A DNA stretch of 64,000 nucleotides, from the NCBI GenBank assembly GCA_051362555.1, contig CM120649.1, forward strand, positions 4,712,001 through 4,776,000, written 5' to 3'. Of this stretch, positions 21,705 through 60,891 are shown in pieces; position 1 is the stretch's first letter, and the number at the start of each line of letters is the position of its first letter. Source of the stretch: Lingula anatina (taxonomy: Eukaryota; Animalia; Brachiopoda). The notes beneath the pieces were generated by a model that saw only the letters and a program-made list of their open reading frames with translations, was not told the origin of the DNA and ran no database searches. The position numbers were made by a program, and so were the translations under genes.

Positions 21705-22628
21705 CAAATTCTCAGATCTTTGTCACAAAGACACTCGCCTTTGATGTGGATCGTTTTGAAGATGTAATAAGCTGATCACTTGTTGATACTGTATCAAGGA
21801 CACGCGTACACAGAGGTGTTGTAGCTCACTAATACAGAACCTACACTACTGCCGCTACTCAATCTTGCTACAACGGTGCTGGAGCTAAGGTGTGTGTGGT
21901 AGACTTCGACAGTAGACTGGTTTGAAGCTTTCATTATCGGTGAGTTTAAATTCTTACTCGAATATCTCAAAAAATAATAATATAAAAAGATAATAATAGC
22001 GTTAAATTATGTATTTTGATACCCTAGTAGTTATCTTGTATTTTCAGAAGATAAGTAGGCTTGTTAAGGACCAAATATTGACCAAACGCTGCATTTTGTA
22101 GTACAAATGTCTAACTTGGCATGAATGTTCCTTGGGCCAAAACATTTTTTTATCCAAAGAGACACGCTATATCGATGCATATATTAGCATGAATTATGCA
22201 AATTAGTTACCAAAATATACAATTTTTCCTATTCCCATCAAACTTTGGCCTAAAAACACGTATAGATCACCAAACTTCAATACATTAGGGACAAGGAACC
22301 CATTTTTTGATATTATGGAAGCAATTGGTGGCCATTTTGTGCCATTTTGTCTCCAAAATGTACAGATAGATTTAACACTTTCACATTATAAATCAAAGCC
22401 TCTTCAATTAAAAACATAGACCAGACACATGTATTCGGAGGGAGACATCGAGAAAACTTATATTACAAAGGTGGGATGTCTACCAAATTATTCAAACTTT
22501 TTTGGGTGAGAACTTTATGAAGGCCACTTTCTTTGGCTTTTAGTTAAGTGCTTCTACAGGAGTACAAATTACCTATCTGCATGTATTGCAATTATGGCTC
22601 TTCCAAGCATTTTTTTCAGTCTACGGTA

Positions 22629-22705
<77 letters not shown>

Positions 22706-24849
22706 CTTGTTTCCGTTAGTGCAAATCTTAATTGACATTGGATGTTGTATAAATTGTACATTATTGTACATTATTACATGTAAGAGATAGATTTTCTGAA
22801 TCAATTTTTTCCTCAAAATCAAATGCCATCTCCAGTAATTAACACCAAGTAAGGAGGCACAATAGTGAGATGTTAATTTGTTTGAATTATTTGTCTTATT
22901 CGTGTCTTTAGAGTCCAAAATTCAGTGGAAACAATTTAAGGTATAATAAAGGTGTGTGGAAAAAGGTAAATATTTGTATGTGACATCCTTTCTGTCTTTT
23001 CGAAGTTGGCGTTTTATTCGGACAAGATACTATTTTTATGTTAAAGTTTTTGCAACGGTGTTTTGACTCTTTGTAGTATCAAATTGACACTGAATGAAAA
23101 CAGCTCTGATTTCAGTAAAAGCAAAACAAAGAAATGTTAGAGACCCAATTTCATCTTTTCTTTTTGTTTATTTTTATTTGTGAGCGTAGGACAGGGTGAC
23201 ACAAAAAAAAAAAAAAAAAAAAAAAACATAAAAATTAATTAAATCCTACGAGGATCCATCAAATTTCAAGACATTGCTGGACTTTAACTCCAACATGTGC
23301 ATGATCATTCCCTAAAACGTCAGTTATCTTTGTAGTCCTGCATAAAAGTTGTTTTTTTAAATATGTTCCAAATGGCCTCAGCGACACTGAGGGACACTTG
23401 CATACGTCGCACAAAATTGTCAAACACTCGAACACATTCCTCTTTGGGGATTTCCCTGAAGTTTGCTGTAATAGTTGCCTTCAATTGTTTAAGGACTGTT
23501 ATCGTACACTTTATACTTGACATATACCAACTGAAAAAATATGTTTGTTTGTGCCAAGGAGTAGGGGGCAAGTCTGATGGATACCATGCCCACTCAGCAT
23601 CACACTTCCTTCGTATCACCTTGTATAAAAATGTCCCCGATTCGAACTTGTACTCAGGTGAATGCTATTATATTTTTAACGCGTATATATCTACTGTCCA
23701 TTTTTTGCGCAGAATCTCACTTCCCACGCAAGTCCTTCTTACGAAATTTCGAGTTTGCAGACAGCCTGTAAGCACGTACGGAGGATGTTGGACATGTCCA
23801 AAAGATTCTACGAATAACCTGCGAACAGCGAGGCCGCAAGCGTAACTTGCTCCCCTCGCACGGAGTTAGCAAGAGAGACGCGCGTTGTGCAAGACGCACG
23901 TCGCAAGCAATGAAGGAACAAGTGCCCTTTGGGTGTTGAGTAAGGCGCACGCCCTCACAACTAACGAACAAAGTCGAGAGCACACCGGGGATGCGTCGCA
24001 CGTGCGTCACCCCCACGCCTAGTGTATAAAAAGCGCACGCTCGTGTCTTTACAATGAACGTCGACTGTGTAACGTGTACAAAAACTTTCAAAATTTTCAA
24101 ATTTTTGCTCAATTTAGTTTCTACTGTGCCTCCAAAAGGCAAGAGAAAAAAGCTTACATAGTAGAAAAAAGGGAGGAGGAAGAAGAAAGAAGAGGAGAAC
24201 CGGGAGCAAAAGTGGCGTACGCCGTCAGTACGTCACCACAAACGTGTGAAGCAAGTGTGAAGCAAAACTGACGCAAAAGGGACCACTTTCGCCGTGCGTT
24301 GCATTCCCTTCGTAAGTGGTGAGTGTGTGCCACTTACACAGGAAGCAAGACAAACTCTTGCAATTAGCGCCCCTGCTTGAAAGGACATCTCATGTGGCCC
24401 TTGCGACTCGCAAGGCAGACTTTCCTCTACCTCTACGACCTCCACGGCCTCCGCAACACCTAAAAATCGCAGGGGAAGTACGATCCTGAAATCTGTGCGA
24501 CCGGTTGTGACCGTGGCTTTATAGGAATGTCACCTGTTTTCTCCAGTACTTTAAAAGTGCATTAAAATCAAATGCAGCTGTTTAAGGTAATTTGGATCAC
24601 TATCAACTATCAACGGTGACCACGCGTCAATTTGGCACTAATGACTCGCTTCATCAAATACAGTATACAAACTGCAGCTACAGCACCCTCCCTCTGGTCA
24701 CAGCGCGAGCGTTACTGGCACAGGATGGACATGTATATTTGTCAAGTTTTTTTTTTAACTCCTTATAATATCTACAAAATGTTTAAGGGCAGGGGCGTAT
24801 CCAGGATTATTTAAAGGGGGGGGGGGGGGTCCGCGGATGCGAAGCCGAC

Positions 24850-24880
<31 letters not shown>

Positions 24881-25325
24881 ACACATGATGTGGGGTTTGG
24901 GGCCCGGTGAAGGATTCCCAAAATGTTTGGTATTTTAGAGGGCGAAAGGTGGTACAGTTTTGAGCTATGATTCAGCTAGTCAGAATTCTAATTTCAAGCG
25001 GGACGAGAAATCGAAGGGGGGGGGGAAGAAGTTGCAAGAATAAATATCATTTTTTTATTATTTTATGACTTTTTGTTTTGAGTCATCCATATTGTACGTA
25101 TCGAAGTGTTTTATACCCGGATGTCCTTGTAAAGGAGGCTGCAGAAAGGACTATAACCCCTGGTACACTGCTCCTGATAGGGTAGGTTGAGCCCATGTGA
25201 CCGTGTAACCTTGGTAATTAAGTTCTTAGCCAGGGAACCAGACTTAAAGTTGTCTTGTGAAACCCGGACAGAATACCAAAGCGACTTTGCTGTGGGGTGT
25301 CGTCGGTAAAACATTAACAATAAAC
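21705..25325 (+). pseudogene. Disrupted older Diedel-like paralog (copy B); exon-2 tail 25119-25190
   Basis: Duplicate of the 6525-10156 relic. Confidence 0.68.
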
Positions 25326-25702
25326 ACATTTTATCCATTTCAGCATCAATCTGCCTCTAGACCAAAAAAAAAACGCTATACTCAGATATGTGTGCAGTTT
25401 TAATCTTAATCTCAAATGTTACATGTTCTATTGACAGATTTCACAAAGCACTCCTCTTTAATATCGATCTTTTTGAAGATTTATGTCACCACCAATTGCT
25501 TGTTCTCACCTTTTTGTTGATTCAACATCAAAGACACACACACAGAGAGAAAGCTGTGAAAGCTCAGTTATACGGGACATTCGAAGCCGCTTCTATTCAG
25601 TCTTCCTACATCACTCCAGCTGAATGCAGCAGACCGGTTTGGAGAGTTCGATAGTGTTGTGTGCTATACTTCAATAACTTGGTGGTAATTCTGGAATTCC
25701 AG

Positions 25703-26772
25703 ATGATGGCAGCATCTGTTGTCACCTTATTCGTTGCTGTCTTCGTGATAGCCACTGTTATAGAGGAAGCTCAAGCTGTGTGTTGTAAAGCAGACAAGAA
25801 CGGGTGGTGTGCGGACTGTACTCCGGTAAGACACAATTTATCCTTCATGTCAAGCACACAGTTGTTTATGTCATTTCTGTGTAACGCATTTAGAGATGAA
25901 GTTAGTGTTTTCCTATTTAGTCATCAGTCAGTCATACTGCAAAACAGAATCAACTGTGTATTAATCCGTGAGAATTAGCTCGTTTACTTTTTGTTCTGCA
26001 TTTTAATGTGTAAAAAGCGGGCGAGCGCTGGTTGTAAAACTGACCAAGTTGTTAAGCTTTTTGGTGCTTTTTTAGTCCAATTATTAATAAAAAGTCGATG
26101 AAGCCTTAAGTCATCTAACTCATCAATACCAGCAAATTTGAACAAATACCGTGCATGGATAATGTGACATATAAATGAAAGGTTGATATTAGTCGCAGCT
26201 CAGTGTCACGCTCCATACATTTGCGCTTAATTTCTAAGTATTTGTTATTAAAGATAAACTAGTAATTTTTACAGTTATGAAACGCATTCGTTGGCGGTTA
26301 AATGAAGTTACCTGTATAAACATTCAAATTTCTTTATTAATTTTATAGTATTTTATTAAAGTTAGCCATTATATCTGAATTGGTCCATTTAGTCTTTTTC
26401 CCCTCACTTAAGTATCCGTCAAGTAAAACATGAATGCAGGAAATGAGGTTTTTCATCTCCTTATTGTTTTAACAATATAATCGAATATCAAAAAAAGTGA
26501 AATAGATATTTTATCCCCCAATTTTTACCGAACTGACAAATCGATCGAAATCTGTTAAAAAAATAACAAAGGCTATGCACTTGAAAATACTTACATATGT
26601 TCAAAGTAATCAGGTTTACGTCTCAAATGCGATTATTCTGTTTCAGACCACTCCATATTGTGGGTATGGGAAGTGTAACATATTCGGCTGTGCTTGCAAA
26701 GGAGGCTGCAGAAAGAACTGCAACCCCGTGTACAGCGATTATTATCGTCCACCGCCGTATGTATACCTGTAA
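25703..26772 (+). CDS. Secreted 82-aa Diedel-like peptide, copy B. Exons 25703-25825 and 26647-26772
   Basis: Protein identical to copy A; same splice sites. Confidence 0.85.
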
Positions 26773-29700
26773 ATCTTGATAGGCCTTCCAATAGGATGTA
26801 CATACATATAAACTAGAAAAGCACCCCGAGAGCGCAGACCTCCGCCAAGGCAGCAAAGTCTCCACCCAATGCCGTTTCACTCCTAAATTTTTATTCTATA
26901 ATGATTTAATATTTTTGATTTTTGATTATTGATTGATTATTGATCCGGATCAACACCAAAAACTAATCATCTGTTCCTGGCCCACTTCTGACAGTTCCTG
27001 AAAATTTCATCCAAATCGGTCCATAACTTATTTTTTCATCTTTGATTATTGATTGATTATTGATCCGGATCACCACCAAAAACTAATCACTTCTAAGTAA
27101 ACCCATTTCTGACCTACCCTGAAAATTTCATCGAAATTCATCCATAACTTTTGGAGTTATGTTGATGACAAACTACCAAACAAACAAACAGGGGTGAAAA
27201 CATAACCTCCTTGGCAGAAGTAATGATATAGGACTCCAATTACTGTAAAAGAGGACCTAATGTTTGTACTATTCCCAGCAAACACAAAACGTACCTGTAT
27301 TTAGAGCGTTATCACAACTTTCTGCTTAAGTTTTCTGTTTGATGGGTTAGTTCTTGGTGTATTGTTTTCAATACGTACATTATTTCTAAATAATACTAAT
27401 CCAAGACACAAAGTGCGGTACGGAACAGGACGAATCATTGCAGGACGTCACGCACCTTGGCTTGTATACAATGTTCGAAAAGATATAATATATCAATAAC
27501 CCGGTGAAGAGGAATGGCTATCGGATAGATTAATATTGGCCATTCACTGGTATGTTTATTGATCACAGTAAAAACAAAAATGAATGAAATAATAATAGTA
27601 ATAATATAAATATATATATATTACCTGAAGTTTGGGAATGACTGGATTTTTTTTCAGTTTCTGGGTAAGCTATTTCCGAAAATGCAGATGCCAAAACACA
27701 AGGTCTGTGGAAGATGAGACCGGGGGAGGTACTGTCGCTAGAGAAACATACCTTAATTGATGCACATCTAGACGGGTAAGGGACTCATACCGTTCTTTTA
27801 TTTGGAAAATGTGACTTAAAATATTGTAATCGCTGATTTGCGCCAGTTTGCTGAAACAGTAACTTTTTTGGAGGCACGTTAATCTTAAGCTGCCATTTAA
27901 TTTGGTGAAACACGTATTTTGTGATTTTTAACTTGTATTTCTTTTCCAATGTTAGATTGCAGAGAAGAAAGAAGCTCAGAAGATACATAGCGATATTCAG
28001 ACAAAATAAATTTATGCTGTCGAGTATAACAATAGCACAAATTGGTACATGTATTCTTTGAATCTCTTTCATTTTTGATTTTCACTCAAATTAATACTCA
28101 GTTTTGATAAAATGTTACACCATCTGCCGTATTTTTCAATGATTTTGTGAGATGATGTTTACGACTTTAACAGGAAATACAGGATTTTTGAAGGGTTTGA
28201 TTGTTGTGCTTTTATGCGAGTAAATGGGGAAGTGAAATCGAAAAAACAGAAAAGAATTTGATCGTTGAAAATATTGATGATTGATATGAATAATCAGTCA
28301 AAATCACCACTAAAAGTGAAAAGGGTACGGTTTAACATAACTGAGGGTCCTTGTAATAGAAAGTCTGCCCTCCATATAGTTATAATGGTTAGGGTTAGTC
28401 TGACCTAAGTGGGTCAAAATCTAGAGCGATCGAGGCTCACCTGTACAAATGAATGGAGAGCGGACTCTCTATTATGGGGACTCTCTGTCACGTTACACCG
28501 ACACAGGCTATATCATATAGATTTTGCACTTGATATGGCAAGTGAACCGTTGCAGATCGCATCTGTAAAGTGTATTACCGAATGAAAAAGTATTGTATCT
28601 GTTAAGAAACCTTTTTGCAAAGACAATCTGCCGAGCGCAGTGAACGGGTAGTATGATGTACGTAAGCAAACATTTTTCTCGATTCTTAAATCAGATTTAT
28701 TGTTCAAAGCAAGCAAGTTAAATTGCCTAATTCATTCTCCAACTGAACTTTAATTGTTTGTTATCTCACACAACTATTCAAATAGGAATAAACCACCTTT
28801 TAGAAATGTCTCGTAGATAGTGAGCCACTCAAGAGAAACATTTAAATTTTATTTGTGCGTTTGTTGCTTGTTTCAGATCATTATTATTCTAATTCTTTTA
28901 GCAGAGTTCATAAAAATTAGCCACACTTTTCCTATAATTCTATGTCTTATACTGTTTGAACAGTTTAGGAAAGCGTGATCTTCTTATCATCAACACCAGT
29001 GGGGGACAGTATAAAGGAACTGGGCCACCTTTAAACTGTATTATGTAATCGCTTCAGGGATGATTTATCTTTCTGTATCACTTTCTTTGTCATATATTGG
29101 TCCAATTTATCATCTAGTATAGAGGAAAATTGTCATCCTAGTATCAGAGCTTGGATCAAACTTGAACCTGTGCAAACGTATTTTATCTGTTTTCCCTAAT
29201 ACCAATTCAGTTAATATGCCTCCAACTTCAGTCACATCTTAATAAAGATATCTCGTAGACACAACTTAACATAGCATGATTTATAAGTATAATAAGAATC
29301 TGATGGAGGAAACGCATTGTAAATGAAAACTATTTCACACTGCAATGTAAAATGGATAACATAAAAGGGAGTGTATTCGCACAATCAAATAAACGTGGCT
29401 TAATTTCGATTCAAGAACTTAATTCCATTTGCCGAATAACCGTTTGCATGTTCATAAAATGTATCTAAGCATTAGCAAAAGTTTAGTTATTTAGTTTATA
29501 AAACATATGTAAGTCAGCGAATGCGTTGGTTAAAATGCCTCTGTGACTTAATTGTATGTAATTACAATTATCGAAAATTTAGATGACAAATGTGTCTCAA
29601 AATGAAGAGCACATTTAAAAGTGCCTCATGCTTCTAGCAACGGAAACCATCCCCTCCACCTGTGGACTGTTGTAATATACGACCCTCCACATATCTATTA

Positions 29701-30584
29701 GAAGTACTTCACTCTTATTAAATGATAAAACCCAGACGGAAAACATCGGTATTTGTCGAACATCAATCAAGCTGATAATACAGCGTTCAATAAGCCGCGG
29801 GATCGCTAAGCAATCCAGACGGCTTTCTCCGCTGTAGTGCATTAAGTCGCATAACTCCGATAGAAATTAATTGTTGGATTTTGTTTCAAATGAACCTTTT
29901 GCCAGGATAACGAGAAACCAACTGACTTAAAAAAAGCTGTTTTTATTCAAATATAAGGCATTCACTCGCTAATCGTTTAGTAGTGACTTGTGATATGGGT
30001 ATTAATACCCAATTTACTGAGGACGGCTCACCCTCAATAAGATGAGTACATTTGAACGCATAACGTCGGTATCTCTTAAACAGCAATCAATTTGATAAGG
30101 CAGATAAATCACAGGTTTTTCTATTTACTTCTTGTGTGTAAAGACTTCAAACTCGGTCAAATTGGTCACCTTGGTGCATCAAACATATTTAAAACATAGA
30201 CTTCCAAATCCCACTGACACAAGAAATCACCGAGAGATATCAACAACTACATCATACTGGTACAGTGAAAATGAGAGGACTATTTTACATTGCCTTACAT
30301 CTGGCGTCGTTTATGTTTATTTATCAAAAATGTGAGGTTTGACAATCGGATCTTTTATTAAGATTCCCGATATGAATAAATGGTTGTGATTCAATGTAAA
30401 ATTAAGTTATAACGTTTTAGGGTACAGTGTTGTTAATCATTTTCAAAGCCAAATTTATGAGGGATTATTTTTCCCGTTCCCTCGAGTCATTTATTGTTTG
30501 TACAATTATTTATACAACTTGCACATACAGATGAGATTCAAAGTTAAAATTTAGTGAAATTAAAACAAATTATTTTCATTTCAG

Positions 30585-31660
30585 ATGGAAGCGGAGCGAA
30601 GGGTAGCGCTAACACAACTGACGGTAACAAATTCCTTCAATACGTTATGCCTATCCCCAAATTATATCTAAGATTCAGTTCTGTGATATTCTTAATAAGA
30701 AAAACCCAATTGCAATGGCACAATTCTATGAGTACATTGTAGTGAACAATGAATAAATAAAATTATTCTTATCGTGTCTGACTTTCACAGTATTAGAATA
30801 AATTTATCACCAAGTATAAGAACAATGGAATGTGGTAAGTTCTGGGGAAAATATATTATATTCCGGTGTGACATGAATGGCAATCCTAGAGTTGGAAGTC
30901 CAGGGTCCCATAAGATAAGGCACAGGTTAGGGTTTGTCAGAGGATTGGGGTCAGTATATGGGACGAATATCCCTGTACAAAGTAAAGGGGGTGGTCTACG
31001 AGTCCTAGAGGATTATTGAAAAAATGTAAAACACACATTAGTTAGTGCTGTGTAATGTTTTTCAGCTTGTAAAAACAAGGACATAGCATTCCTGTTAGAT
31101 GTTACTGGCTCCCCAGATGATGCACCAAAGATTCAACGCTTCTTGGCGTATTTGGTCAACGATTCATTCGTAATTGGACCTAGTGACGTCAATATCGCTA
31201 TTATATCTTTCATACCGGAAATAGATGGTCATGTGACACTGGACAAAGGGGACTTATATCCCGACGTATCGGCAGCAATCCTCACTGTGAACGTACACAA
31301 TGGGACATCTTTCGAAAGCCAAACGTATAACGCGTTGGACTTGGCCAAGACCGTTTTTCTTAGTCCTCAGCATGTTCAAGGAGGAAGGTTAAATGCAAGT
31401 AAAATCGCCGTCGTCCTAACTACGGGGCTGGATGACACATTCTGCACTACTGTACAAAAGGCGCTGGCGGCGAAGCAACAGGGCATTGAAGTGTATGCGA
31501 TAGGGGTCGGCAACAAGACAAGCCAACTTCTAGAACTAAAAGCGATTGTTAGCCCTCCTGCGCATACCCATGCTTTCCATGTAGAAGCGTTTGATGAGCT
31601 GCGCGAGCTGGCAGAGGTCTTCTTTAAAGCACTTTGTTCAGGTAGGTCTATTTACTAAAG

Positions 31661-31693
<33 letters not shown>

Positions 31694-32772
31694 TTTTATG
31701 TTTGGCATAAGCTCATTAGTACAATGTTGTAACCTAATGATTACCAATTCTAAATTATTGACTGTGTTTATGCATGTATCACCAGGACTGACTGCACCCT
31801 ACACATGTTCAACTTTAAGTTCTTTTTGCGTATTTGGACCAACTTAATTACATATTCAGCCATTTTAGGAAAAACCCATGCTTCATATAGAAATTGGTTT
31901 TAATCAAGCAATTCCACCTGCAGTGTCCCAGACCATTGTTTAGTTTACAAGGCTTCTTTAGGAGCGAAATGCTTCCAGTAAACTATTTTCGGTTATAAAA
32001 ATTGAGATTTTAGTTTTTTAAACGTTCGCTTTTAAGTCCTATATTTATTATTATACCTCCATCTATCATTTCCCATGTATAGCTCACCTTGTTATCTGTG
32101 ATTACCGTTGTGCCTATATATTTTTACTTTTTCAATTCCATTTTAAATCACAATTCATAGTGTATTTCAATACTTTAAAAGATGAGGTTTTATTTCACTA
32201 TTTAAATACCATATAGGTCCCAACATTTCACCATGCGCATGCTGATCTTTCCAGTTACAAACAACATGACGTCACCAGAAGACGACACTTGGCAAAGGCA
32301 TTACAACATAACTTGCCTGAATGTAACCAGCTTTCAGCAGACGACGACCTCATCACCGCAATCTGGTGCGATTGGTGAGAACGACACAGTCTCACCTACC
32401 GCATCCTATCCTTCCGCTACCGGGACTTCACTAGGCACTGCAAAGTATATAGATAATTTCACCTTATCACCGATATCTGTTGTGACTGGTGAGAGCGAAA
32501 CAGTCTCACCTACCGCATCCTATCCTTCCGATACTGGGACTCTACTGGGCACTGCCAAGAATGCAGATAATATTAAATCGGAATCTGGTATTGATTCTAA
32601 TAAACCAAGCCAACAAATGGATGTCATAATAGGGGTTACCGTCCCAGTGATTGCATTATTGTGCCTTGCTGCCATAATTGGCTTGTTGTGGTGTATGAAG
32701 AAAAAATCGAGACGCGTGCGAGCAGAGGATGGTCAAGCTGCGAAGTCAGCAGAAAAAGAAAATGGGTCGTAG
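30585..32772 (+). CDS. VWA-domain type I membrane protein, copy C. Exons 30585-30623, 31066-31641, 32255-32772 (2 stalk repeats)
   Basis: Same exon structure; more diverged stalk, TM and introns; lacks the intronic elements of copies A and B. Confidence 0.85.
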
Positions 32773-34011
32773 AACAGGCGTAACATTTTGATTATTCTAC
32801 ATTTTGATTTTGCTCTTCCTTCTTCGCACTGATTATCATATTGGTTCAAGTTTTCAATTTTTACTAACAATTTCGACATGTGAGTATCATTTGATATTAT
32901 AAGTGGTACTGTGTACAGTGTGCATTTGACATGCGACACTGGCTGTATTGTCATCTACATATACTATGTGTCCAACCTAGCCAATGTCCTTTAAATGTTA
33001 CGCTTGTTGCTTTATATTTCATGTCAAGTTAAATGTTTGGTTATGTCTCATTTATTGGCCATTACTGTCCTCTTGTCTATCTAACCCTAACCCGAACAAA
33101 CAGCGACCTGTATAACATAGTTCATGTTCTTTGTCTGTATTGTACACGTAATAAGCGAGATAGAGACTTTTGTTCAGCTGAAACAAACTGCTTTATGTGA
33201 CACCCATACAGCGGAGAAACTGTTACTTAACAATATGTACATCTTCAATCGAATAACGTAACAGTTATATACAGGTACATGCATTTGATTTTATTGGGGT
33301 TATTAACTTGCGTGGTTATTAATTATTTCACGTAATATTTGCCCCAAGATGTTCAACCAAGATCAATTAGTCATATGTAAAATATTGTATGAGAGAAGGC
33401 AGGATAATATAGGCAGTCTATTGATCGATTTGCTGACTCATGGGCGCCTTAGGAAACTGTACTTTCGATGGATTTTCCGTCAGTTCGAAACCGATAATAA
33501 ATCACCATAAGTAAACCTATTGTTGTATACGCTGACTGTTCAAAAATCCCTTTTACCTACGTCCATAAAAGCATAAAAGTAAATTGTTTTTCGACATTAA
33601 ATCGTAACCGTTTAGAGAATACGTAAGCTGTCATATACCAGACGTAACTCACGCTTTGCATTGATATCAAGTAGATGGAATATTTGGCCCATTCTCTTTC
33701 ACATCAGCGACGCAGTAAAGATAAGGTGTAACGGCTGTGCCCACAGGTATTCGGTCTGCCACCATCCCAGGGTCTACGCCTTATATCGGGAGAACAACAG
33801 AGATATTCCCAGGTACAGTGGGGGTTTAATTCTCACCCATCAAAGGTCTCCGCTGCCACTAACCGCGGGCGTGTTAAGGTAAAGATACTAAGGAAGGGAA
33901 ATTACCATTGTTTACTCTATCGACGGTTAAGGTCGCACTGCAATCTGTATACTAGCCGTGTATGGTCTCACCTACAAGATATAACCATCACAGACGTCAC
34001 GATCCAGAAGC

Positions 34012-37131: not shown

Positions 37132-37541
37132 TGCGTAATTGTTCAACGAGTACCCTATCACAAAGTAAGAAAAACATTCATTATATAAAAAGCTATCTAA
37201 CTTTTTGACGAAAAGTTATCGATATAATGAAACAATATTTTTCTTTAAAAGATCCCATATAAGATGGCACTATTTACGAATTGATAATGCCACTTAGAAT
37301 ATCCAATAATGTTTGCAAGTGCCCAAATGCAATCCAAAATAAAATATCAAAGAAAGGAAAAACGTATATAAGAGACTTTCAAACAAACACTCAGACAACA
37401 ACCGCAATGTAAATTTCAGTGCATTCGGTTTATTTTCCAATTTAGCAGAACTTCACAGAAAATAAGTCCAAAATTCCAAAACGATATTTTTTCTCATTGA
37501 CAATCGGCATCCCTGACAGCTGACATCACTGACAGCTGACA

Positions 37542-40500
37542 TCACTGACAATTATAGCTGCACTTATTGGCGTGCGAGGTGCCCTCTATGACCCAGCAGG
37601 TTCTCCTGTTGTCTCCATAGTGACCGATGTGGATATGCTCTCCGCCGGTACAGGTGTCACGTCCGTGCCAGATCACCTGGTAGTCCCTGGCCAGAATGCC
37701 GCTTGATCTAAGCCGATTAAAGATCGCCCGGCCAGACCCCTCACCTTCGATCCAGAAGTCGGCAGCGCGACTAAAATAATGCTGTTACACGAGAAAGAAA
37801 AAATAATAATAATGCATGGTTATAACGACATATGATTGCGTTGAGTATAAAGTTCGTTTCAAATGCTGAAATCATTTTACAGTTTTTAAAATTGTAAGTT
37901 CACATAGCGACAATACATTTCAAACTTCATTAAAAGCATGTTTTAAATTTATAGAATGGAAGTGCAATCTAGTATAGGTCTTTCCGTGTAGAAAATGAGT
38001 TTGCAGTGATCAATTGTGTAACATTTATTCCGTCCAAAAATGTGTAAAATGTCTGCCATTCTCAGTGGAAATTCAAATTCTTACTTAAAACCAAGAAACC
38101 ATAACATTACATTGTAATATTCAATATCATCTGAGTTTTAACATGATACCAATACGAAGTGATAACGTTCTAGCTCACATGAGACCTGCTATTGGACTGG
38201 TGGGGCCGATCGCCGCTGAATAAATACACTCGTTTTCCGTACAAGTTGGCAATGGCCTGAAGCTTCCTTCTGACATCAGCGTCGGACACCGCGTATCCTT
38301 GGTAGTCAACCTTCCCTTTTCCTATTCCTGTCAATCAACACAAAAATCTTTATTTGTAATAATTATTAAGGTAGTCAAACGAGTTTATTCAAGAAAGTTG
38401 GCCTGATATGGCACTTGCCACAGACTTTCTGAAAAGCGGATCAATAATTGATTTAAAATAGCTTAGATGCCCATTTATCCCACGTCTTACATATTACACA
38501 TCTGTTTTTCAAAGTAGAATCTATCATGGTGAAGCTGAAACTAAAATTTAGTTATTGCAGTCAAACTGTTTAAATTTTGTGGTATCAATATGACATGCAG
38601 AAGTTCTACAACTGCAATTGATGGCCGCAACATCACAGTTACAGTCACATTTTTATCATATTTTCGACAGAAAGTTTTACTTGTGATTGGACAGTTCAAA
38701 CTACCTGACCCATAAATAGAAAGGCACGATTCCGTTCAAGTACTTTTCCAATTTTACCTTAGATACGGCGTGTGTAGCCTCTCAAATATTTAAAACAAAC
38801 TTAACAACCGTTCCTTCCGTGTATTACGACCAAAACATAGACGGGCGAGGAGATTCTTGCTATTTACCTGAAGATGAGGAAGACGAAGATGAAGACGTGC
38901 AGCATCGCCTGGAAGTCGGTCCGGCACACAACCCGGTTTTGAAATAACCACTGCACGAGTTGAAGGCGAACTTACAAGTGCCCCCCTGACTGGTGCAGCG
39001 CCTGTCGCCTAGGACGTCCAAAATGATTGAAAATAAAATCAAAATAATTTTTTAAAATCCGAATTCAATAATTATACGAAGGAGACGAAGGTAAATAAAT
39101 AAAGATCAACGACAGAAGGATAAAATGAAGGTACAATTGGTATATTGCAGTTTAAGACGTGTATAAATAAATATACAGAGGATATAATAGAATAAGTCAA
39201 AAAATAAAATAACGATAATTTTCTTCATTCCAAAATATTAGGAAAAGAATTAAGTATTTTTTTATACGCCATACCGTATCCGGGTACGCAGCACTTCCTG
39301 TTGTACGCCCCTGCACACTTTCCACGAACGTACCAACCGCTGCAGTACAACGCGTCAACCTGGCAGGTGGCGCCAGCCCTGTACCCATGACACGCGCTGT
39401 CTGTGTGGAAAAAAAATACACAGGTTAGACTGACTTTGAAAGGCAGTGAAGTCAAATTCTCACATTATATTTTACCAAAAACATCAAGCGATTTTTCTCC
39501 ATTTGGCCGATTGTCAATGTTTTCCTTTTTTATAAACTTTGCTTATTGAATGACAATGATAAGCACTGAGGTCAATTTGCACAATATTTATCGGCCAAAA
39601 TATCAAACGATTTCTCTGCATTTGACGGATAGTCAATCCACCATTTTATAAACTTTGCTTCTAACTCAGGGTAACTTAGGGTTCAAGACTTTAAAATACC
39701 ATGATAAACAAAAGACAATGTCCAACGATTGAAAACAATGATTAACCCACGAACGATTTGATGTCTTTGCAGTAATCTGAGATCTTAAATACAATTCGTC
39801 TCTGGGAAAGTCTGCCGAAGATAACTGATACAACATTGAGTAGACAATAGATATAAGAATTCGAGTAGATAATATTTTACAGAGGAAATAAGAAATTTAA
39901 TCATGTTTTAAACAGATAAGCGCCATGCCTTGGGAGTCTGGTTCCACAGCATTCTGTACGTGTGGTCAGTTTTCTTTAGCGTGCGGTACAACTAATATTG
40001 GGTCTTATATTTGTGGAGAAGCATCATAGATTCGATCAGATAAAAGCATATGCTGACTTCAGGGAAAGAATATTTGATCTGTATAAGAAATATTCGTTGA
40101 AAGAGCCTTTGGTTTCTAACATAAGTTGAAAGGATGAAACAGCTTTTAAGTCTAAATATAATTCAAAGTAACAATAAGGGTTATTATTAACATTGGATTT
40201 ACAGGTAACTTCTGCAAGACAATTTAAGTATGTGTTTAAAAATACAGACTTGACATTTAATATGGAATATTTCAGTTTTAAAGGTATACCTAGGTCAAAA
40301 TGCGTTCTTTTTTTTAAAAAAATCAGATTTCATATAAGACATCTGTCTGGAGAAGTGTGAAGTCAGGTGTGTCGCTGCCAATTAACTGACTACCAAGTCT
40401 GTTGCACTGCTGCCTTGTGTAATATGCAGTGATTTAATTGGGCAGTGCTCCTTTGGGCTAGTCAAAGCTTGGCTTTGGCGAAGGATGGTTCTGTCAATAA

Positions 40501-42466
40501 AGTATCCATATGTCGGCAAATACTGCATAGAAGAATTTGAAATTTTGCATACAAGCGGTCGGTTTTGCAGTGCGTAAAATGAGTTAAGCAGCGTTTTACA
40601 AAACTGTTAAGCTGTGCCAGAATGGCGCGAAAAACACAGACATTGCCAGACAGATTATTGTGTCAAACGGAACGGTCTACACAGTTTTATAGAGTTATGC
40701 TCAGTTTGAGGCACTACACAGAGACCAAGCCCAATGCATCGACGTCTTACCACCAGGGTATAGGACTCACTGTCCTTCAGGATATGCTGCTGCAATTAAA
40801 CCAATACCACCCAGTCCGTTTTAAATGAGGGACAAATTGTCACCAAAACTTGTTTTTCAAGGCTCTTAGCGAACACCAAACTGATTTCAGCAGGTTAGGA
40901 TTCCAGGCGACCTCTGAGGAAGCCACTGTAAACAGCAAAGCAGCTTAGTCTGTTTCTCTAATGAATTGGGGACCATGACAGTTTCTGGGTAAAACACTGA
41001 AACCGCGTGGCTTCTTTATTGAGGCCATATTTAACCTGTACCGCTAAACTGGTCAAAACAGAGTTTACAGACATTCTGAAAAGGCCTTCGACGAAATGTG
41101 TGCCACTTATTAAGAGGCTAGGGTCATTGACAGTGTCAGTATTTGGAGTGGATACCACATTGGTGCCAAAACACCAATGGTAGTCATCGATGAAAACCTT
41201 AACCAGATCAAATAAAGAAATAATCTGGGAACCACTTGACTATTATTTGATAGGGGGCACCTTAGGAACAATTTTAGGTTGCAGGGCGAGGTTGCCGGTT
41301 CACACAGAGCACATTTAATAGCAGATAACTTACAGAACCAAGGGAATGAGTAGCTACCTTGGTCATCAAAATCGCCATATTTGAACCACATAGACAATAT
41401 GTGGGTAGGTCATTACTCGCCGAATCAACGGCCTGCATGTCCTACATCAAAACTGAGCCAAATTGGACAAGTTTTAACCGTATTCTGGAATTTTATTCCA
41501 GATTAAACTCTAAAAAGCCTATCATAAGAAATGCCTTGCGGCTTGAAAGCTCTGGTAGCAGCAAGATGAGGTCAAGCGTAACAGCGACTGTTGCTGTGAC
41601 TAGACACTGACATGGGGGGCCTTTGTGGGGCGTGTAACTCTTTTAAAGACAATAATTAGGAAAATATGGAGATCCAAAATATCGCTTTCAATGGTTGTCG
41701 TATGACTTAAAATAGGCAATGTATTTTTGTTTGCTTCACTGACGAATTCAATTAATAAACTGATGTCACAGTGACATCGAAGAGATTATCAAAAGTTATT
41801 AAAACACGATTTTAATCCTTATTTTCATTTATCAGTCAGCAAAATAGGAAAAAAACTGATGAATTATGTTTTGGAAAAAATATTCCATATTAAATGTCAA
41901 GTCTGTATGTACTACAGTTTTATTCCTAGTCGATCTCTTCTCAAACATTGAATATACATGTACGTTTACAGCATTTTTCTCAGTGAGAAAAAGACACTCC
42001 TTCAAAGATTATGTTTCTTAAATTTTATTTTCTGTTGATGAATTTTTATTTTACTCCACAATCATTATCAATCAAATTATAATCACTCTTAAGATAAACC
42101 AAAATGGTCAAAATTTAGGTGAGTGACAAAAGTTACAAAAATATTTTTGGTTGTTATGGCATGCACTGACGCAAAAATCTATTACCGATGCATATGTTTC
42201 TATACAGATTTCGTCAGAACATAAAAATTCCAATTTACTTTTTTGATTTTGTCTACTTTTCACCCTTAAATACAAGTCTTATCAAATAAAACCCTGGCAT
42301 ATGGCTGATTTACAGTATTTAACCCCACGTCCATGTCAGTACTAAAAGTACAGTAAAAAGGTTGAAACTGAACCGAAACTAAGAGATCAACGCCTCTCCT
42401 CTTACCTGATAAAGCAGCAGACTCACGGAGAAAGACAATCGCTAAAACACCGAAAAAAAACAACAT
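37542..42466 (-). CDS. Secreted 238-aa protein: signal peptide + two defensin-like 6-Cys domains + Ser linker + M15/LAS (Hedgehog/DD-peptidase fold) zinc peptidase. Exons 42466-42406, 39400-39275, 39008-38868, 38327-38179, 37781-37542
   Basis: Five exons (61+126+141+149+240=717 nt) splice in frame with GT-AG sites (phases 1,1,1,0). Catalytic part: ...YLFSGDRPHQSNSRSH/HYFSRAADFWIEG...GGEHIHIG, giving SGxR, H-x6-D and HxH motifs. AATAAA on the minus strand at 37434-37429. Confidence 0.85.
40245..41905. mobile_element. TA-flanked TIR DNA element (1.66 kb) in intron 1 of the peptidase gene
   Basis: TIR CAGACTTGACATTTAATATGGAATATTT at 40245, with its reverse complement ending 41905; TA at 40243-40244 and 41906-41907; no intact transposase ORF. 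Confidence 0.85.
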
Positions 42467-53621: not shown

Positions 53622-54913
53622 TGGACTGACGGAGGAAGATGCTCTAAGGCTGAACTTATATATGTCCAATTTACCATGGCACATGCAAGACACTTTGTCC
53701 ACTCAATATGACTACCGTCGCCTGACACCGTGGCACCATTTCTTTGTCTTCGTATTGCAATAAGACGAATTCACAAAGGCATTGCGAGTGCTTAACGGAG
53801 GCGTGCTGACTTTCTAAGGCAAGCAGCCAGCTTCGTAAATTCTTCGTGAGGCTAGAAATACCCGATAACACCAATTATCGCAAAATATTAGGACTAAAAT
53901 GACAATTTGCAAGGTGTCCTCACAATGGCCTTACTGAAGAAAAATAGACAGAACAACAACACAAACAATTACTTCAAAAAAGTTAAGCACTGCTCACGAA
54001 GTTGCTTCTATGTACCTGAGCCTGAGAAATTTTAAAGACATACGACGGATTAAGTCGCCCTTCAGCCGCATCGCCTACAGGAAAAATTGCAGTTCGCGGT
54101 ATACACACAGGCCATGAAACGCAAACTTGGGCACACCCTAATGCTAAATGTGGGTAAATGTGGTGACATTTGGTGGTGTATTTTCAATCATTTAATGGGC
54201 ACTTCTTTGCTTCTGTGGAAATCACAGTGAAACCTTATACGAATATATGAAATCTTATACGAATTTTCGTACGATTTTTTAAATGTATATATCGTAAGTG
54301 GCTACGTCGACTACGTTTAAATGTTACGTGCGGGTGCAGTGCCATTTCTTGACATAATCTTGAGGTCACGTGGAGAAATATCGGGGTTTTGGTTTAAAAA
54401 TGATCGTACGCAGCCCTTTCAGTACTAGTGCAGTTGCCAAACGCCTTCCGTGTGGCTTCCTTGAAGATGGGCACATTGTCGGTGCTGACCCCTACGATTT
54501 TTCCACCCATGTGGTCAGATTAAGGAAAATCATTATTTCAAATATATGCAAGTGAATTACAGTAAATTTTGAACATCTTTCCTATTGCAACGCCTTCTAA
54601 ACCACCAAAGAAAGAAGGGGAACTGACTAATAGCAGGTTTAACCATGATCATGATCATCGCAATTCCACAAAACAACGCCCGTGCGGGAACTGTACAATG
54701 TCATCTACGATAATGCTACTGCATAAGGGCTTACGATTTCAAAAAGTTGTCATAAGTTTAAGCTTGACAAGCTCCTAGAGGCTTTGGAGGATGTGAATCC
54801 GTTCGACTTCGCAACCATCTGCATCCGCACAGACGCGGCGCTCGAAAAGGGATTTACGGGCAGTATACAAATACCGTGAAAACATCGCATGGCAAATGAA
54901 AAATAAGCTTTAC

Positions 54914-57026
54914 CTGTAACTGCTAGTATTAATGACGGGATGAAATCTTTATCCGGAACGAGAAAGCTTTCTGTCCGGAGGCTGATTTTGTGCAGAACAG
55001 AGAGTGACCATTCATTATCTAGCACAACAGATATGCAGTTAAGACCTCTTTCAACCAGTTGTTCGACTTGTTCACTGTTCTCAGGCAGAAATAACACAAC
55101 ACAATATGGCTGCTCTGACCCAAATGATAAGGTATCTTTGGTTTCATCAAGTATATGGATGTCGCTGCATTCAACTCCCCTCTCTTCAAGTTGATCACGA
55201 ATTTGTTTTACTCTGCGTTCGTCATCGATGTTACATACCAGAGCGATTTTGTTCAAACGTGTTGAACTGGTGGCCATTTTCCTGGAAAAATACGAGATAA
55301 AAGATTTTTCGCAGATATTGAAATATAGACGATATATCGCATCGCGGAGGTTTTCTTTCACAATGATCCCTACGAACTTTAAGGATACGATATGTTGACT
55401 CGCTTCGTTCAGTAAATACAAAACAAGCAAATCGTTAAGCCCCGTCACGCCTTTCGTTAAAAGGTATGTATGGGAACCATATATGAAATCGATTATATCC
55501 ACAACTTTGAGTGTATGGAATCACCTTTTTTCCAGCGTATGAAATTGAACATTTAAGCAGCGAACGAAACTATGTTTGAACATGCTCAAAACATTTAAGG
55601 GGGTTTATTATTGTGCTATGTGAACGCAGTATTTTCCCTTAATTGTTTTTGTTATGCTACCAACCATACAACTGTAAGATTGTGTACTTTACCTAAACCG
55701 TTGTCTTGGTTCTTCAGCCAGCATGTAATCGAGAAGCTCATGCAATACTAGCAGAAGGTCGTGATATATCCAAATGTCAAAGATTTTTTTCCATCTCAGT
55801 GATGTTTTGGTTCCTAAAAAGTACAATTCAAACAGAAATCAAATAGTGATAAGTTCATTATTAATTCAATACATACAATGTTTATCTTTGGGTCGCTATG
55901 GGACTGTTTCCCGAACATAAACAACCTGTAAGCATTTAATGTTGTGGTTAAGGTTATTGTAACCCTTTATTATCATCCAAATACCGAAAAAGAGTGTTTT
56001 CCTGCTGTTAGTCCATGACCATATTATTTTAGTCAATATTCATAAAATTTATTACAGCCACACTTATATAGTATATTAGCAAAGATATTCACGTTATTTT
56101 ACTGTAGTGGAACACAACAAAATTTAGATAGGGAATTTGAGAATCTACGTGGGTTAATTAAAACAAAACTGATGATGATATGTCGTTCATTTTGTTTAAA
56201 ATATTACTTTTTGCTTTTTTGTAGCTACTCATATAGCCACTGGATCACGAAACATGTTCATGACTTCAGTGTAAGGGCAGGAAAGAAATATATGTTTACA
56301 CCTTTTTATCGTTATTGTGATCTGTTAGTGCTCCGATAATGGCACACATACAAGCATATTCAAATTAAATGCTTAATTCGCTTTCTCAATATTTTTCTTG
56401 TGTCAACATCTCCTTCAGCACCTTGGTTTTGTTTATATATTTCATCACCATGAAAAATATCAGAGCCTTTTTGACAAGCCTTCCATAAAAGTATACCATG
56501 TAAATACGAGTTTGAAACCTTACTTCAGTAACTGCATTTATTATTTATTCGGTTACCTGTTGCAGCAAAATGGACTAAACACTCCCTCCAACAAGAACGT
56601 GTTGTTGTGATGTATTCGAATTCCATGACAACAAGAGGAGCTCGCAAGGGTTCTACATCGACCAAAAGAAAATGAAACCGTCGCTTAGTCTCCAAGGCTT
56701 CCATTAAAAAATGTTTCCAGCTTTTGTTTCCGGAAGCATGGTCTGAGTAAACAATTACGAGCTTTTGGCAAGCTTCTCCGAGCTCTCTATCTTTATCTAA
56801 CTCTGTTCGCAGAAGGCAGCGAAGTCCATATGTCTCTAATACTGGTTTTATTTGCTTTTCAACTAAGTCTTTATCCTCGCTGTCAAGTAACAGGATTAAA
56901 TCGTAAGCGGCCAATCAACCATTATTTTATCACTAGGTTCCAAAGAGCATTGCTCATCATCAGTAATGTCAGGAACGACATCGGGTTTTGATCTCGACAT
57001 GCTGGCATTGGCCTGCATTGCTTGAT
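54914..57026 (-). CDS. Tandem TIR-like domain exons: 57026-56557 (frameshift near 56915), linker 55813-55693, 55281-54914
   Basis: YDLILLLDSEDKDLVEKQIKPVLETYGLRCLL...KLVIVYSDH...SW follows TIR box1/aA/bB/bC. KIALVCNIDDERRVKQIRDQLEERGVEC...CVVLFLP is a second, more divergent TIR-like fold. Phases 1-2-1 join in frame. Confidence 0.7.
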
Positions 57027-57889
57027 CTGGAAGACAAAAAGCACGTGCACTTCTTTGTCATGGTTGCAGTGCTCAGCAATGTCTGTTTTTACCAATATAT
57101 CTAATCGTATTATTTATAAACCAAACATATGGACTAGATTAAAATGTCATAGCACATACACACACACATTCACACAAACACGCAAGGCAGTAAAAGGTGA
57201 TATATATTTAGCACCTATGCGACAGATTTTCGGTGTTTTTTCTCTGGATATGCCGCTTTTGTCGCTGAACACTGGTGATAGGAGATCGACACCAAATTTC
57301 GATCTCGACATGCTGGCCTGGACCTCCATTTCTTTATCTGGAAGATAAAAAGCACGTGTACTTCTTTCCCCATGGTTGTGGTGCGTTGCAAAGTCTGTTT
57401 TTTAAACGTTTCTTATTTTATAGCCATAATTGCCATTTTGGTGACTCATCTCTCTTCTTTTTTTCTCTTTCTTTCTTTTTTTCTTTTCTTTCTTTCTTCT
57501 TTCTCTTTCTTTTTTGTCAATTACAGTATTGATGTTAGTTTGAAAGTCTGAGCCCAAACTAAGTGAAACACACTACATACGTCACCTGTGGAATTGCAGA
57601 AATCCTACCTTTTTCCGGTAAAGAAAGCTCCAATCCTGTACACGTAGGAGTAGTGTAGATTAAGACTTCGATAAAAATAGCTGTAAGTATCACTGTCATT
57701 CCTTTCTCCAATTCCCAATGGGATATTTTGGCAGGTTTCAATTTGTTATCTATTTATCTAAGTTCATGTTTTGTACTGAAACGGGCACCAATTAAATGTT
57801 CTTGTATATGGCACTTATTTTCAATAACTTACTCAGACCAGATGTAGAATTTAAAATAAGTTAGTTATCTATTACAGAAAAAGCATTAC

Positions 57890-60800
57890 CTCTTTTAATT
57901 TTGCCGATTTTCTTTGGAACACCGGTCTCCAAATGAAGTGCCTCGTGTAGGCGGAAGTCTGGTATGGTCTTAATTATCACATCACGAATAAATTCTGCGA
58001 AGTAAATAAATTGTAATTGATTACTGATTCAAGCTGCTGGCATATGTATGAAAGAGAGAAAGAACGACTTTAAGAAATGCATACTTTGGTAAAATCCAGT
58101 TAAAGTTTTCGTCTTTTAAGTTATTAAAGTAACTTTAATTTGCTGAAGATTATAATGCAACATGTCTTGTTTAGATATTTTCCGTAAACATTAACGCATC
58201 CTTCTGTAACACATTAGTTTTTACCGGGTGTTTTACGTGGTTTCTTTACAGCCTCCACGGTTATACTGATATCTTCTTCACGCCCGAATGTAGCTCCCAC
58301 AATTATACCGATATCTTCTTCACGCTCCAATGCGCCACATAGTTTAACGGCTACGGAACCTCCGCAGCAGAGATCTACAACTTCTTCCACTGACTTCTCT
58401 GAATCACAAACGACTGTGAGGGTAATGTTGCTGTTTTCAATGCGAACATCTGCAACATATCGTGTACCATCCTCAAGGCAGTCAATGGCAGTGGATATGT
58501 TATCATCTCTGCTGCAGAGGTTCCGTTTTTCTAATCTGGATATGTCGATTATGTCGTTTAGCACTGGTTTCAGGTAGTCGACATTTGCTTCTGAACCCGA
58601 CATACTGACTTGGACCTCCACTTCTTCACCTGGAAGACAAGGAAGCATGTGTACCTCTTTCCTATCGTTGCACTGCATTATAAAGTCTTTTTTAACAAAT
58701 GTATCTTATAAAAGTAGCCGTTTTGTGAAATTGTGGTCACATTATCTCTCCCTCTCTCTGTCATTTACACCTATCATTTCAGTACCAAAATGTCAGTCCA
58801 CGCCAACTTAAATACACTACATAATTCACAAACGTCACCTGTGAAATTGCTGAAATCCCACATTTTTCCGTCAAAGGAAACTCCAATCCTGTAGGAGCAG
58901 CATTGACTTCGACTATGATCAAAATATATTTGGGTGTCTCTGTCATCTATTTCTCCCGGTTCGTAAGACACAATATCGATCCATTGGCCCCTTATAAGTT
59001 CATCAGGCATGCATCGCTGAACTTTGCAATGTAAGTGACGCCACTGCAAATATGGAGCTTGTGTTGCAAAACTCCACTCAACCACTGTGCCCGCAACAAT
59101 TTTATGTCGCTTCACTTCCAGTTGAGGCATGATTCCACGGGCTAAACGACAAAAATATATTGAGATAAATAAAGTGTATTTACTAACCTATATTTTAAAT
59201 ACAACCTAAAAAATCTACGAACCACAAGGGTGAAATTTATACACATTTAACTATGCCTGGGTGTCGAACAAAGTACAAATAACGCCCATTGTATTTTCTT
59301 GCATGTTTTGAAGGCACCTGCCAAAGACGTGCTACTCTAGCTAGTGCATACATCAGCCGGCCACCCCCTAACCCCAAACCCCCACATACCACATACACGA
59401 GCACAGTTAGATTGATAAAATTTAAATCATTCCAATTATTACATAACTGAGTATGATTTTATATTAACCTGCTCGGGCAAAGTTCTTGCGAGCCTCTAGG
59501 TAGGAACTGTACTTCATGTAGACGTCCAGTTTCAAATCGGGTAAGTTTAAGGATTTCAAAGCGCCCTCGGTCGTTACGATGGTTGACAGGATCTCTGACA
59601 CGGTCCCATCTGAGCACATTTCTCGTAACTCTGTAAACGTCCCGTAGGACTGGCAGACCACGCTCATTACAATCTCACAGTCCCTGAACTCACGAACAGA
59701 TCTACCGTCGTTGTTTATAGGTCTCAACCTCATGGGATGTTTATTTGCCTGCTTATCAAGAAAAGCAGCGACCTTTGGTTTATTTCCATTGCTGAAATGC
59801 GTTTCAGGTTCTAGACGAGCGTGGACGTCAGCAGCGACCCCTATTTAAAACATTATATTTGCACAAAGAGCGCATTCTCAACGAATTAAGCCAGGCTTTA
59901 CAAAGCCGGTGACCTAAAAATGGCGGACGTACATGAAAGAAAAACCGCCTAATCTTTTAATAGTCTCTCCGCCTCTCACACGCCTCCCCACACGTCGTCC
60001 CTGCGGGGTACAGTAATTAAATCTCGGCTCCGAACATTAATATTTCCGTGAATATCTCTGGTGATATTATCTCCGTAGATAGTCGATTCATTGCTGCTCT
60101 ACGGGCCAAATTATTCCTTTTTCGTCTCTGTTTTCAAAGATAATAGAACAGAAGAGCTTTTTTCCTTCGATCGCCTTCAGCCGCCATGCTTTCTTCACCA
60201 CGAGTTTAACTGATGAGCATGCGCACTTAATATTTCTCAGGTAGCTTCCGCATGGCGAACGGAGACGCGATTTAATTACTGTACCCCGCAGGGACGACGT
60301 GTGGGGAGGCGGAGAGACTATTAAAAGATTAGGCGGTTTTTCTTTCATGTACGTCCGCCATTTTTAGGTCACCGGCTTTGTAAAGCCTGGCTTAATTCGT
60401 TGAGAATGCGCTCAAAGAGAATTCCGTTAAAAATAGCATCAATGTAAGAAGCAAAGCTTTTATATATTTTTTCCAGTTTAAAATAAAACCACTTCCAATG
60501 GTTACAGATGTACATATATTTCAGTAATATAACTATTTTCTAAAAACTACCATATCTATATTAAAAAGTGAATGACAATGTGCCTTTATTAATCTCCTAC
60601 CTGTTCTTGTTTCTCGCAGCAGGTTCTTATACTTTTCGTCAAGATATAATCCTACTTTGTATGATACAACCTCGCCTTGCGAAATCCAAGCTGTGTCAGT
60701 AAAAGAAGGATTTGCATTCGTGTTGGGCGGTCTTTTTAGTATGATTTTCTCTGTCTGCTTCTGATTGCTTTTATCCATGCACCTTGTCACCCTTGTGTAT

Positions 60801-60891
60801 ACGAGTCTCTCCACTTCTCTAGGAATCTTCCATTTAATTACTCTAAATCCCTGTTCTACAGTCACCACGACCTCCGGTGGCGGCATATTAC
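57890..60891 (-). CDS. Phase-1 exon array: FN3-like (60891-60601), TRADD-N-like (59840-59469), FN3-like (59141-58839), TRADD-N-like (58629-58225), short exon (57994-57890)
   Basis: All exons are open, have lengths divisible by 3 and GT-AG ends. P..V.W....Y.(I/V)G pattern of FN3-like sandwiches. IVMSVVCQSYGTFTELREMCSDG and ITLTVVCDSEKSVEEVVDLCCGG resemble TRADD-like N-terminal domains of invertebrate death/TIR proteins. Confidence 0.6.
59868..60413. mobile_element. Foldback MITE with ~150-bp terminal inverted repeats
   Basis: GAGCGCATTCTCAACGAATTAAGCCAGG... from 59868 is reverse-complemented ending at 60413; AAA on both flanks. Confidence 0.85.

Follow-up and report, generated by a model that had tools for sequence, protein, structure and literature searches.

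Rusticalin is described as a protein with a signal peptide, two cysteine-rich repeats of the pattern Cx6Cx6-7Cx8Cx7CC, a serine linker and a Hedgehog/DD-peptidase (M15) domain, encoded by an intron-containing gene. It was proposed to be a horizontally acquired antibacterial protein, with inhibitory repeats as the alternative (Daugavet et al., 2019; PMC6339383), and according to the same paper its activity still needs testing. Rusticalin-like proteins were reported there from tunicates, lancelets, a coral and a placozoan, and neither Lingula nor annelids are mentioned in the accessible part of the paper. Here we characterize a gene of the same layout from the brachiopod Lingula anatina, located in a 64,000-nt stretch of contig CM120649.1 (GenBank assembly GCA_051362555.1, positions 4,712,001 to 4,776,000), which is referred to as the window. 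The initial annotation of this DNA had read the gene as two defensin-like modules joined to a horizontally acquired, bacterial-type M15 zinc peptidase with an antibacterial role.

Both the repeat-plus-M15 layout and the horizontal gene transfer (HGT) and antibacterial reading had been printed for rusticalin, and the Lingula protein itself stands in a 2020 table of HGT candidates. The novelty claimed for the gene was therefore overstated, and our surprise is moderate since layout and HGT idea were already published. The table in question (Daugavet et al., 2020; PMC7379824, Table T1) comprises 382 repeat-bearing proteins; A0A1S3KGF4, scored with 2 repeats at E=2.9e-10, and two paralogues are given as 2 repeats plus IPR009045, and a Lingula repeat-trypsin fusion as well as repeat plus PF08291 proteins in fungi and Trichoplax (B3SC14) are also included. 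In the accessible part of that paper the Lingula proteins have a table row only; neither a donor nor a tree is given for them, and their active sites and animal relatives are not discussed. Trichoplax PLys, a GH23 lysozyme, likewise carries a repeat pair and a Ser-rich linker in front of a cell-wall hydrolase for which a bacterial origin has been proposed. PLys is, however, a glycosidase whose activity was shown by experiment, whereas the Lingula protein is a predicted peptidase. The PLys repeats are a stabilising, removable part, and their removal raises activity (bioRxiv 10.1101/2024.10.06.616844).

Gene structure and transcription

The gene lies on the minus strand and consists of five exons (61 + 126 + 141 + 149 + 240 = 717 nt; read from the window, with ends fixed to GT-AG) separated by four canonical GT..AG introns of phases 1, 1, 1 and 0 (Table 1). 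The spliced product has 238 amino acids (aa) followed by a stop codon, with zero internal stops. From the N- to the C-terminus it comprises a hydrophobic N-terminus, two six-cysteine modules, a serine run and a 129-aa domain, and the first codon of exon 5 is that of H160, the first predicted zinc ligand. Each cysteine module occupies an exon of its own with phase 1-1 boundaries, as had been annotated. The L. anatina database protein XP_013421539 (A0A1S3KGF4) matches all five exons and is identical to the model at 231 of 238 positions; one of the seven differing residues lies in the C-terminal domain. This match places the gene model far beyond chance and, together with the GT-AG splicing, bears out the intact, presumably secreted 238-aa protein with two cysteine modules and a poly-Ser linker that was first proposed. 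The joining of exons 4 and 5 appears sound from its GT-AG ends, the reading frame, the database protein and an unbroken alignment to relatives. No second copy of the gene was found within the window. A short direct duplication of approximately 17 nt extends across the stop codon (window 37519-37552).

Table 1. Features of the Lingula gene and of its first intron (window coordinates)
Feature	Position	Strand	Description
Exon 1	42406..42466	-	Start codon, then predicted signal peptide (aa 1-20; hydrophobic, by inspection); phase-1 donor; N-terminus shared with P0001; intron-1 RNA joint, 4 reads in X6
Exon 2	39275..39400	-	Cysteine-rich repeat 1, C24-C58, spacing C8C6C8C7CC; phase 1-1; RNA-bridged to both neighbouring exons in X6
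Exon 3	38868..39008	-	Cysteine-rich repeat 2, C67-C99, spacing C6C6C8C7CC, and poly-Ser linker; phase 1-1; RNA-bridged to both neighbouring exons in X6
Exon 4	38179..38327	-	First part of M15/LAS domain, aa 110-159, SGDR motif with R150; phase 1-0; joint to exon 3, 3 reads
Exon 5	37542..37781	-	Stop codon and remainder of domain (aa 160-238) with H160, D167 and H210 as predicted zinc ligands; predicted catalytic H198/H208; Cys 203, 221, 233, 237
Candidate polyadenylation signal AATAAA	37429..37434	-	About 110 nt past the stop; sole AATAAA/ATTAAA in 640 nt scanned downstream
Inverted-repeat-bounded element, 1.67 kb, inside intron 1	40242..41908		Perfect 31-nt terminal inverted repeats; decayed frames; not protein-coding for this gene

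By their cysteine spacing and their pairing behind the signal peptide the two repeats are of the rusticalin type: repeat 2 fits the published motif exactly (6, 6, 8, 7) and repeat 1 reads 8, 6, 8, 7. Both are cationic, with isoelectric points of 8.6 and 9.2 for modules 1 and 2. A Pfam defensin match was not obtained for the repeats in the exons and animal proteins scanned, and in the structural model they reached a predicted local distance difference test (pLDDT) score of only about 40; the likeness of such repeats to beta-defensin is an HHpred result of PMC6339383.

Transcription was assessed with four of nine same-species RNA runs (X1, X4, X6 and X7), of which 6-25% each was read and aligned. 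In run X6, introns 1, 2 and 3 were bridged by 4, 3 and 3 reads, respectively, at the exact predicted ends, and first mates lay on the plus strand, as RNA from a minus-strand gene would give. No joints of the gene were listed for X1, X4 and X7 in the fraction read. The gene is thus transcribed, and RNA supports three of its four splice joints, introns 1-3, in one of the four runs. Reads over the exons were mostly 90-95% alike and ran on into paralogue-like sequence, which indicates that paralogues are expressed above this copy in these runs. Among the best-supported rows, 8 of 12 differences in exon-5 reads fell on third codon positions.

Fold, family and active site of the C-terminal domain

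The best Pfam match of the domain was Peptidase_M15_3 (PF08291; E=2.1e-4, under the cut-off, for protein P0001). PHROG endolysin family 894 matched 5/5 domains (best E=5e-4), and in the ESM Atlas the first cluster retrieved with the catalytic domain contains M15_3 (score 0.95, family on 32% of members). Pfam searches with single exons gave nothing informative, and phmmer with the whole protein found no relative of solved structure. Pfam detected no lysozyme domain in the Lingula protein, and the NCBI name 'lysozyme 1' was probably given because of the repeats. An AlphaFold2 model of the domain, built from a 19-row alignment, reached pLDDT>=90 for 122 residues, while residues 1-93 had no confident model; an earlier, weaker model pointed to the same family. 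When the domain model was compared with 48,161 solved chains, LAS proteins filled the first eight ranks. The best match was the Zn D-Ala-D-Ala carboxypeptidase of Streptomyces albus (1LBU, M15A; Z 8.4, root-mean-square deviation 3.2 over 104 aligned residues), followed at lower rank by three Hedgehog N-domains (Z 7.1-7.6), pneumococcal VldE (9FLH; 6.8), Ply500 (2VO9; 5.8), T5 endolysin (5.7) and LysB4 (5.0). Foldseek also ranked 1LBU first (probability 1.00, E=5e-3) and returned phage M15A peptidases at E~1e-4. As judged from the modelled fold and the zinc motif, the domain is of the M15/LAS (Hedgehog/DD-peptidase) type, and the family assignment of the initial annotation holds.

Differences from the known members of this clan are considerable. 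The domain shares the common fold with 1LBU and VldE at only 19-25% identity, and it has four extra cysteines. With the Hedgehog N-domain, BacHh, Hedgling and Hedglet it shares the LAS fold and the H-x6-D/HxH zinc site, yet HH_signal gave no match at E<=10 in 5/5 animal proteins, which speaks against an origin from Hedge domains, and identity to Sonic hedgehog (Shh) in the structure alignment is 17-18%. At the position of Shh Glu177, as aligned by eye, the Lingula domain presumably carries a His. Hedglets occur in lophotrochozoans and are described as lacking catalytic residues in the accessible part of PMC8052667; some overlap between Hedglets and the animal members described below may exist. 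The rusticalin domain, in contrast, is Pfam M15_4 (PF13539) and Ply500-like (PMC6339383). Peptidase_M15_4 gave no match at E<=10 in 5/5 animal proteins, the Lingula domain fits 1LBU better than Ply500, and the table of PMC7379824 files the Lingula proteins apart from its PF13539 rows. Judged by M15_4 the Lingula gene falls outside the rusticalin-like family, a separation drawn without a direct rusticalin alignment.

The zinc motif consists of H160-x6-D167 and H208-x-H210 with R150 upstream; the motif around R150 is SGDR, which corrects the SG(Y)R given initially. H160, D167, H198, H208 and H210 are invariant in 34/34 aligned domains. Together with R150 they are kept in 67/67 prokaryote-type rows (duplicates counted) and, with two fragments set aside, in 15 of 16 full-length animal-type rows; an Owenia paralogue (P0015) has lost R150. 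The three predicted zinc ligands H160, D167 and H210 are thus intact, as annotated. VldE shows the pattern R..H-x6-D..H..HxH, which is also given for 1LBU; its residues are R294, H301, D308, H370, H373 and H375, and replacing any of the five His/Asp residues by Ala abolishes activity (PMC11667670). In the same paper R294 is assigned to carbonyl polarisation and H370 is proposed as water activator, as in the S. albus enzyme. By analogy with these two enzymes, zinc would be bound by H160, D167 and H210, the carbonyl would be polarised by R150 and zinc, and water would be activated by H198/H208.

Relatives, phylogeny and genomic surroundings

A phmmer search of 1.84 billion representatives with exon 5 as query gave 44 matches at E<=0.001, two of which (P0030 and P0046) are without the domain. 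Eight named animal proteins were recovered, five from Lingula, two from the annelid Owenia and one from the chiton Liolophura, and no other animals occur among the named matches. P0006 and P0024 show the animal cysteine pattern. Bacterial members with names are from Chondromyces crocatus and, via cluster members, from Blastocatellia. In GTDB genomes 11 loci were found, assigned by title to Acidobacteriota (7), 'uncultured Clostridia' (3) and Bacteroidota (1). The proteins of the three clostridial loci (L001, L002 and L006) are 68-98% identical to the Blastocatellia query (L001 98%), so the labels may be wrong. When 401 Acidobacteriota genomes were scored, three reached 130-180 bits, nine reached 24-34 bits (canonical M15) and the others gave no match; by this split the subfamily is sharply bounded. 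Identity of the Lingula domain is 31-49% to the prokaryote-type subfamily versus 14-30% to canonical M15. M15_3 matched 33 of the 40 relatives scanned, and 26 of these matches exceeded the cut-off. From these comparisons the domain is placed in a separate, sharply bounded subfamily that is not the M15_4 of rusticalin and is new here. In a literature search with thin coverage of subscription journals, no published study was found of the subfamily, or of the Lingula proteins past the table row in PMC7379824.

A profile search of a larger database, limited by words, yielded no further protein, and among 20 candidate stretches viral contigs gave one match of twelve residues. GenBank phages gave two weak matches (E 0.07-0.3) and plasmids none, hence no close phage relative there, and JGI metagenome contigs contained one canonical M15 only.

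The domain is joined to varied partners. LysM and/or PG_binding_1 is present in 13 of the 40 relatives, and one further protein has a cell-wall hydrolase domain. Because the bacterial relatives fuse the domain to LysM, PG-binding and SLT domains, a lytic endopeptidase is the favoured prediction. In animals the N-termini hold the repeat pair (three Lingula proteins), PAN (three Lingula proteins), SH3_3 (P0005 from Owenia; also P0006) or none of these (P0019 and P0015). The SH3_3 of P0005 is a bacterial SH3 domain, and the N-terminus of the Liolophura protein aligns with that of Owenia yet has no SH3 match. The animal domains contain four cysteines (203, 221, 233 and 237) versus 0-1 in prokaryote-type domains, and these likely form two disulfides; the pattern agrees with a single acquisition and later adaptation to secretion.

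Two further observations were made among the relatives. The same peptidase has a second clade in Lingula (P0009, P0012, P0023, P0050 and P0051), several members of which lie on one contig; these proteins are named 'uncharacterized protein', and PAN was present in all three that were scanned. P0022 and P0025 (Logan/ENA), two of the four prokaryote-type proteins nearest to the animals, also have an SLT/goose-lysozyme-like domain (weak Pfam SLT, motif like PLys); in these a single bacterial protein holds two domains that are each common to animals.

Two trees of the animal members, the prokaryote-type subfamily and canonical M15 outgroup rows were calculated on 133 columns. The first had 65 rows, with 35 duplicates, near-duplicates, fragments and poor rows removed; the second had 51 rows, with long branches and some close rows also removed. 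The animals group with four prokaryote-type LysM/PG-binding proteins inside the subfamily (support 97/93 in the first tree and 94/98 in the second). In the second tree the subfamily including the animals separates from canonical M15 (99/95), and in the first one long outgroup row falls inside. A single clade of prokaryote rows appeared in 0/200 bootstrap trees. These data show a close, patchy link of a few lophotrochozoans with bacteria. Transfer from bacteria to animals is likely but unproven, since the approximately unbiased (AU) test rejects no alternative (see below). Of the horizontal acquisition proposed in the initial annotation, the part concerning relationship has thus been substantiated, as the closest non-animal relatives are bacterial-type cell-wall proteins; its direction is likely.

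Introns, RNA and paralogues show that the gene is resident in the animal genome. GC content at third codon positions is 0.62-0.66 in the gene versus 0.40-0.42 in two neighbouring frames; it is equally high in repeats and domain and was dropped as a sign of foreign origin. For the rusticalin locus of Ciona, which has a tRNA gene, a tRNA/attP route has been proposed (PMC6339383). Our 64-kb window contains no tRNA gene (attP itself was not searched for), and the tRNA/attP route therefore has no support here.

The intron-1 element (Table 1) is likely a decayed transposon, which we take to be of the Tc1/mariner type; four of its short frames had no Pfam match, and many reads 90-95% alike piled up on it in all four runs. 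Elsewhere in the window a tandem duplication of >10 kb with ~95% identity (2445-14822 and 17532-29960, with a third partial copy near 31013-32795) holds three copies of a vWA-domain frame and a Thr/Ser-rich stalk/transmembrane frame, and it may be a receptor cluster. On the minus strand (54753-59844) several long frames belong to a multi-exon gene, and one of them gave a weak TIR_2 match (E=0.04, below cut-off), and a reverse-transcriptase frame of non-LTR (non-long terminal repeat) type lies at 60765-62228 (RVT_1, E=3.5e-28, split over more than one frame).

Function and alternative explanations

Taken together, we assign a probability of about 0.65 to the following reading. The transcribed gene would encode a likely secreted zinc peptidase predicted to cut a peptide bond of bacterial peptidoglycan. 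Its catalytic domain is likely bacterial; an ancestor of part of the lophotrochozoans would have taken it up, and the two repeats would have been added afterwards. A single acquisition from bacteria would have been followed by the gain of two disulfides and an intron, and N-terminal modules would later have been exchanged, with Cys repeats or PAN in Lingula and SH3b in Owenia, independently of rusticalin. The predicted role is the killing or digesting of bacteria. For a more far-reaching version the chances seem even: a previously undescribed M15 subfamily typical of Acidobacteriota and myxobacteria would have entered an early lophotrochozoan a single time and stayed an active peptidoglycan peptidase in brachiopods as well as in an annelid and a chiton. 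It would have expanded in Lingula, with its N-terminal modules (SH3b, PAN, Cys repeats) repeatedly refitted and the rusticalin layout reached independently.

Several results weigh against the bacterial peptidase reading. No intron-4 joint was among the joints listed for the four RNA runs (6-25% of each), and reads for this copy were few compared with its paralogues. The Pfam score of 21.8 bits is below the Peptidase_M15_3 gathering cut-off of 23.2, and Foldseek gave no PDB match at E<=0.001. Shh comes within 1 Z unit of 1LBU (7.6 versus 8.4) and is the first match of the profile search (E=0.06, 52 positions). Conservation of the active-site residues is inflated, as relatives were picked with the motif-bearing exon, and the mapping to VldE follows motif order, so that the equivalence of H198 and VldE H370 is inferred, not aligned. 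Most 'prokaryote' rows are metagenome proteins, with sources looked up for 20 of 41 new matches. Monophyly of the animals is weak (ultrafast bootstrap 65), and the AU test rejects none of three alternatives, namely prokaryote monophyly (p=0.29), a clade of the remaining 29 prokaryote rows (p=0.37) and animals plus one outgroup clade (p=0.078).

Enzyme and origin may be as proposed while the repeats, instead of targeting the enzyme or attacking membranes, form a protective or inhibitory pro-part that is cut off at the Ser linker, the job being the digestion of food bacteria more than immunity. We regard this as possible but clearly improbable. The rusticalin paper (PMC6339383) points to a likeness to a tick carboxypeptidase inhibitor and puts forward a regulatory role, and it would suit a pro-part that relatives carry PAN, SH3b or no N-terminal module. 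Against this, both repeats are cationic and the N-terminal slot of the relatives holds cell-wall-binding domains.

It is unlikely that the zinc site is kept for a substrate other than peptidoglycan, or for binding only, as argued for Hedgehog N-domains. The near-tied fold match to Shh and the Owenia paralogue P0015 without R150 would agree with this, but the His/Asp/Arg set is complete in nearly all full-length animal-type rows and the partner modules are cell-wall-binding or antimicrobial-type.

Even less probable is a history with no transfer from bacteria to animals, in which the gene descends from an old animal Hedge/Hedglet-type or eukaryote ancestor with many losses, or passed from animals to bacteria. 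The AU result for a single prokaryote clade leaves room for it, Hedglets are present in lophotrochozoans, transfer from animals to myxobacteria has been proposed for GH23 lysozymes, and the bacterial subfamily is rare (3 of 401 Acidobacteriota genomes, one of these being the centre itself). However, the animal proteins match no HH_signal and differ strongly from Shh, Hedglets are described without catalytic residues, and the bacterial members are more diverse, come from several phyla and have 0-1 Cys per domain without the animal four-Cys pattern. A chance splice model or a bacterial contaminant, which the missing intron-4 joint might suggest, is refuted by four GT-AG introns, three of them RNA-bridged, by a 97% identical annotated protein, by paralogues on other contigs and by animal-type neighbours (vWA-domain genes, retroelement).

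The known animal enzymes that break down peptidoglycan are mostly glycosidases and amidases, and to our knowledge domesticated peptidases such as Dae2 are few. Likely new here is that the domain belongs to a separate bacterial subfamily, that this subfamily occurs in three lophotrochozoan phyla, that its N-terminal modules have been swapped and that it is probably independent of rusticalin. The misleading database name 'lysozyme 1' is corrected. With its intact active site, its paralogues bearing varied N-terminal modules and its close bacterial relatives, the Lingula gene is well suited to experimental tests. Two or more distinct M15 lineages carry the repeat pair. If the more far-reaching version is true, two M15 subfamilies would have been domesticated convergently behind the same repeat pair, and animal antibacterial defence would have a peptide-cutting arm beside lysozymes and peptidoglycan recognition protein (PGRP) amidases.

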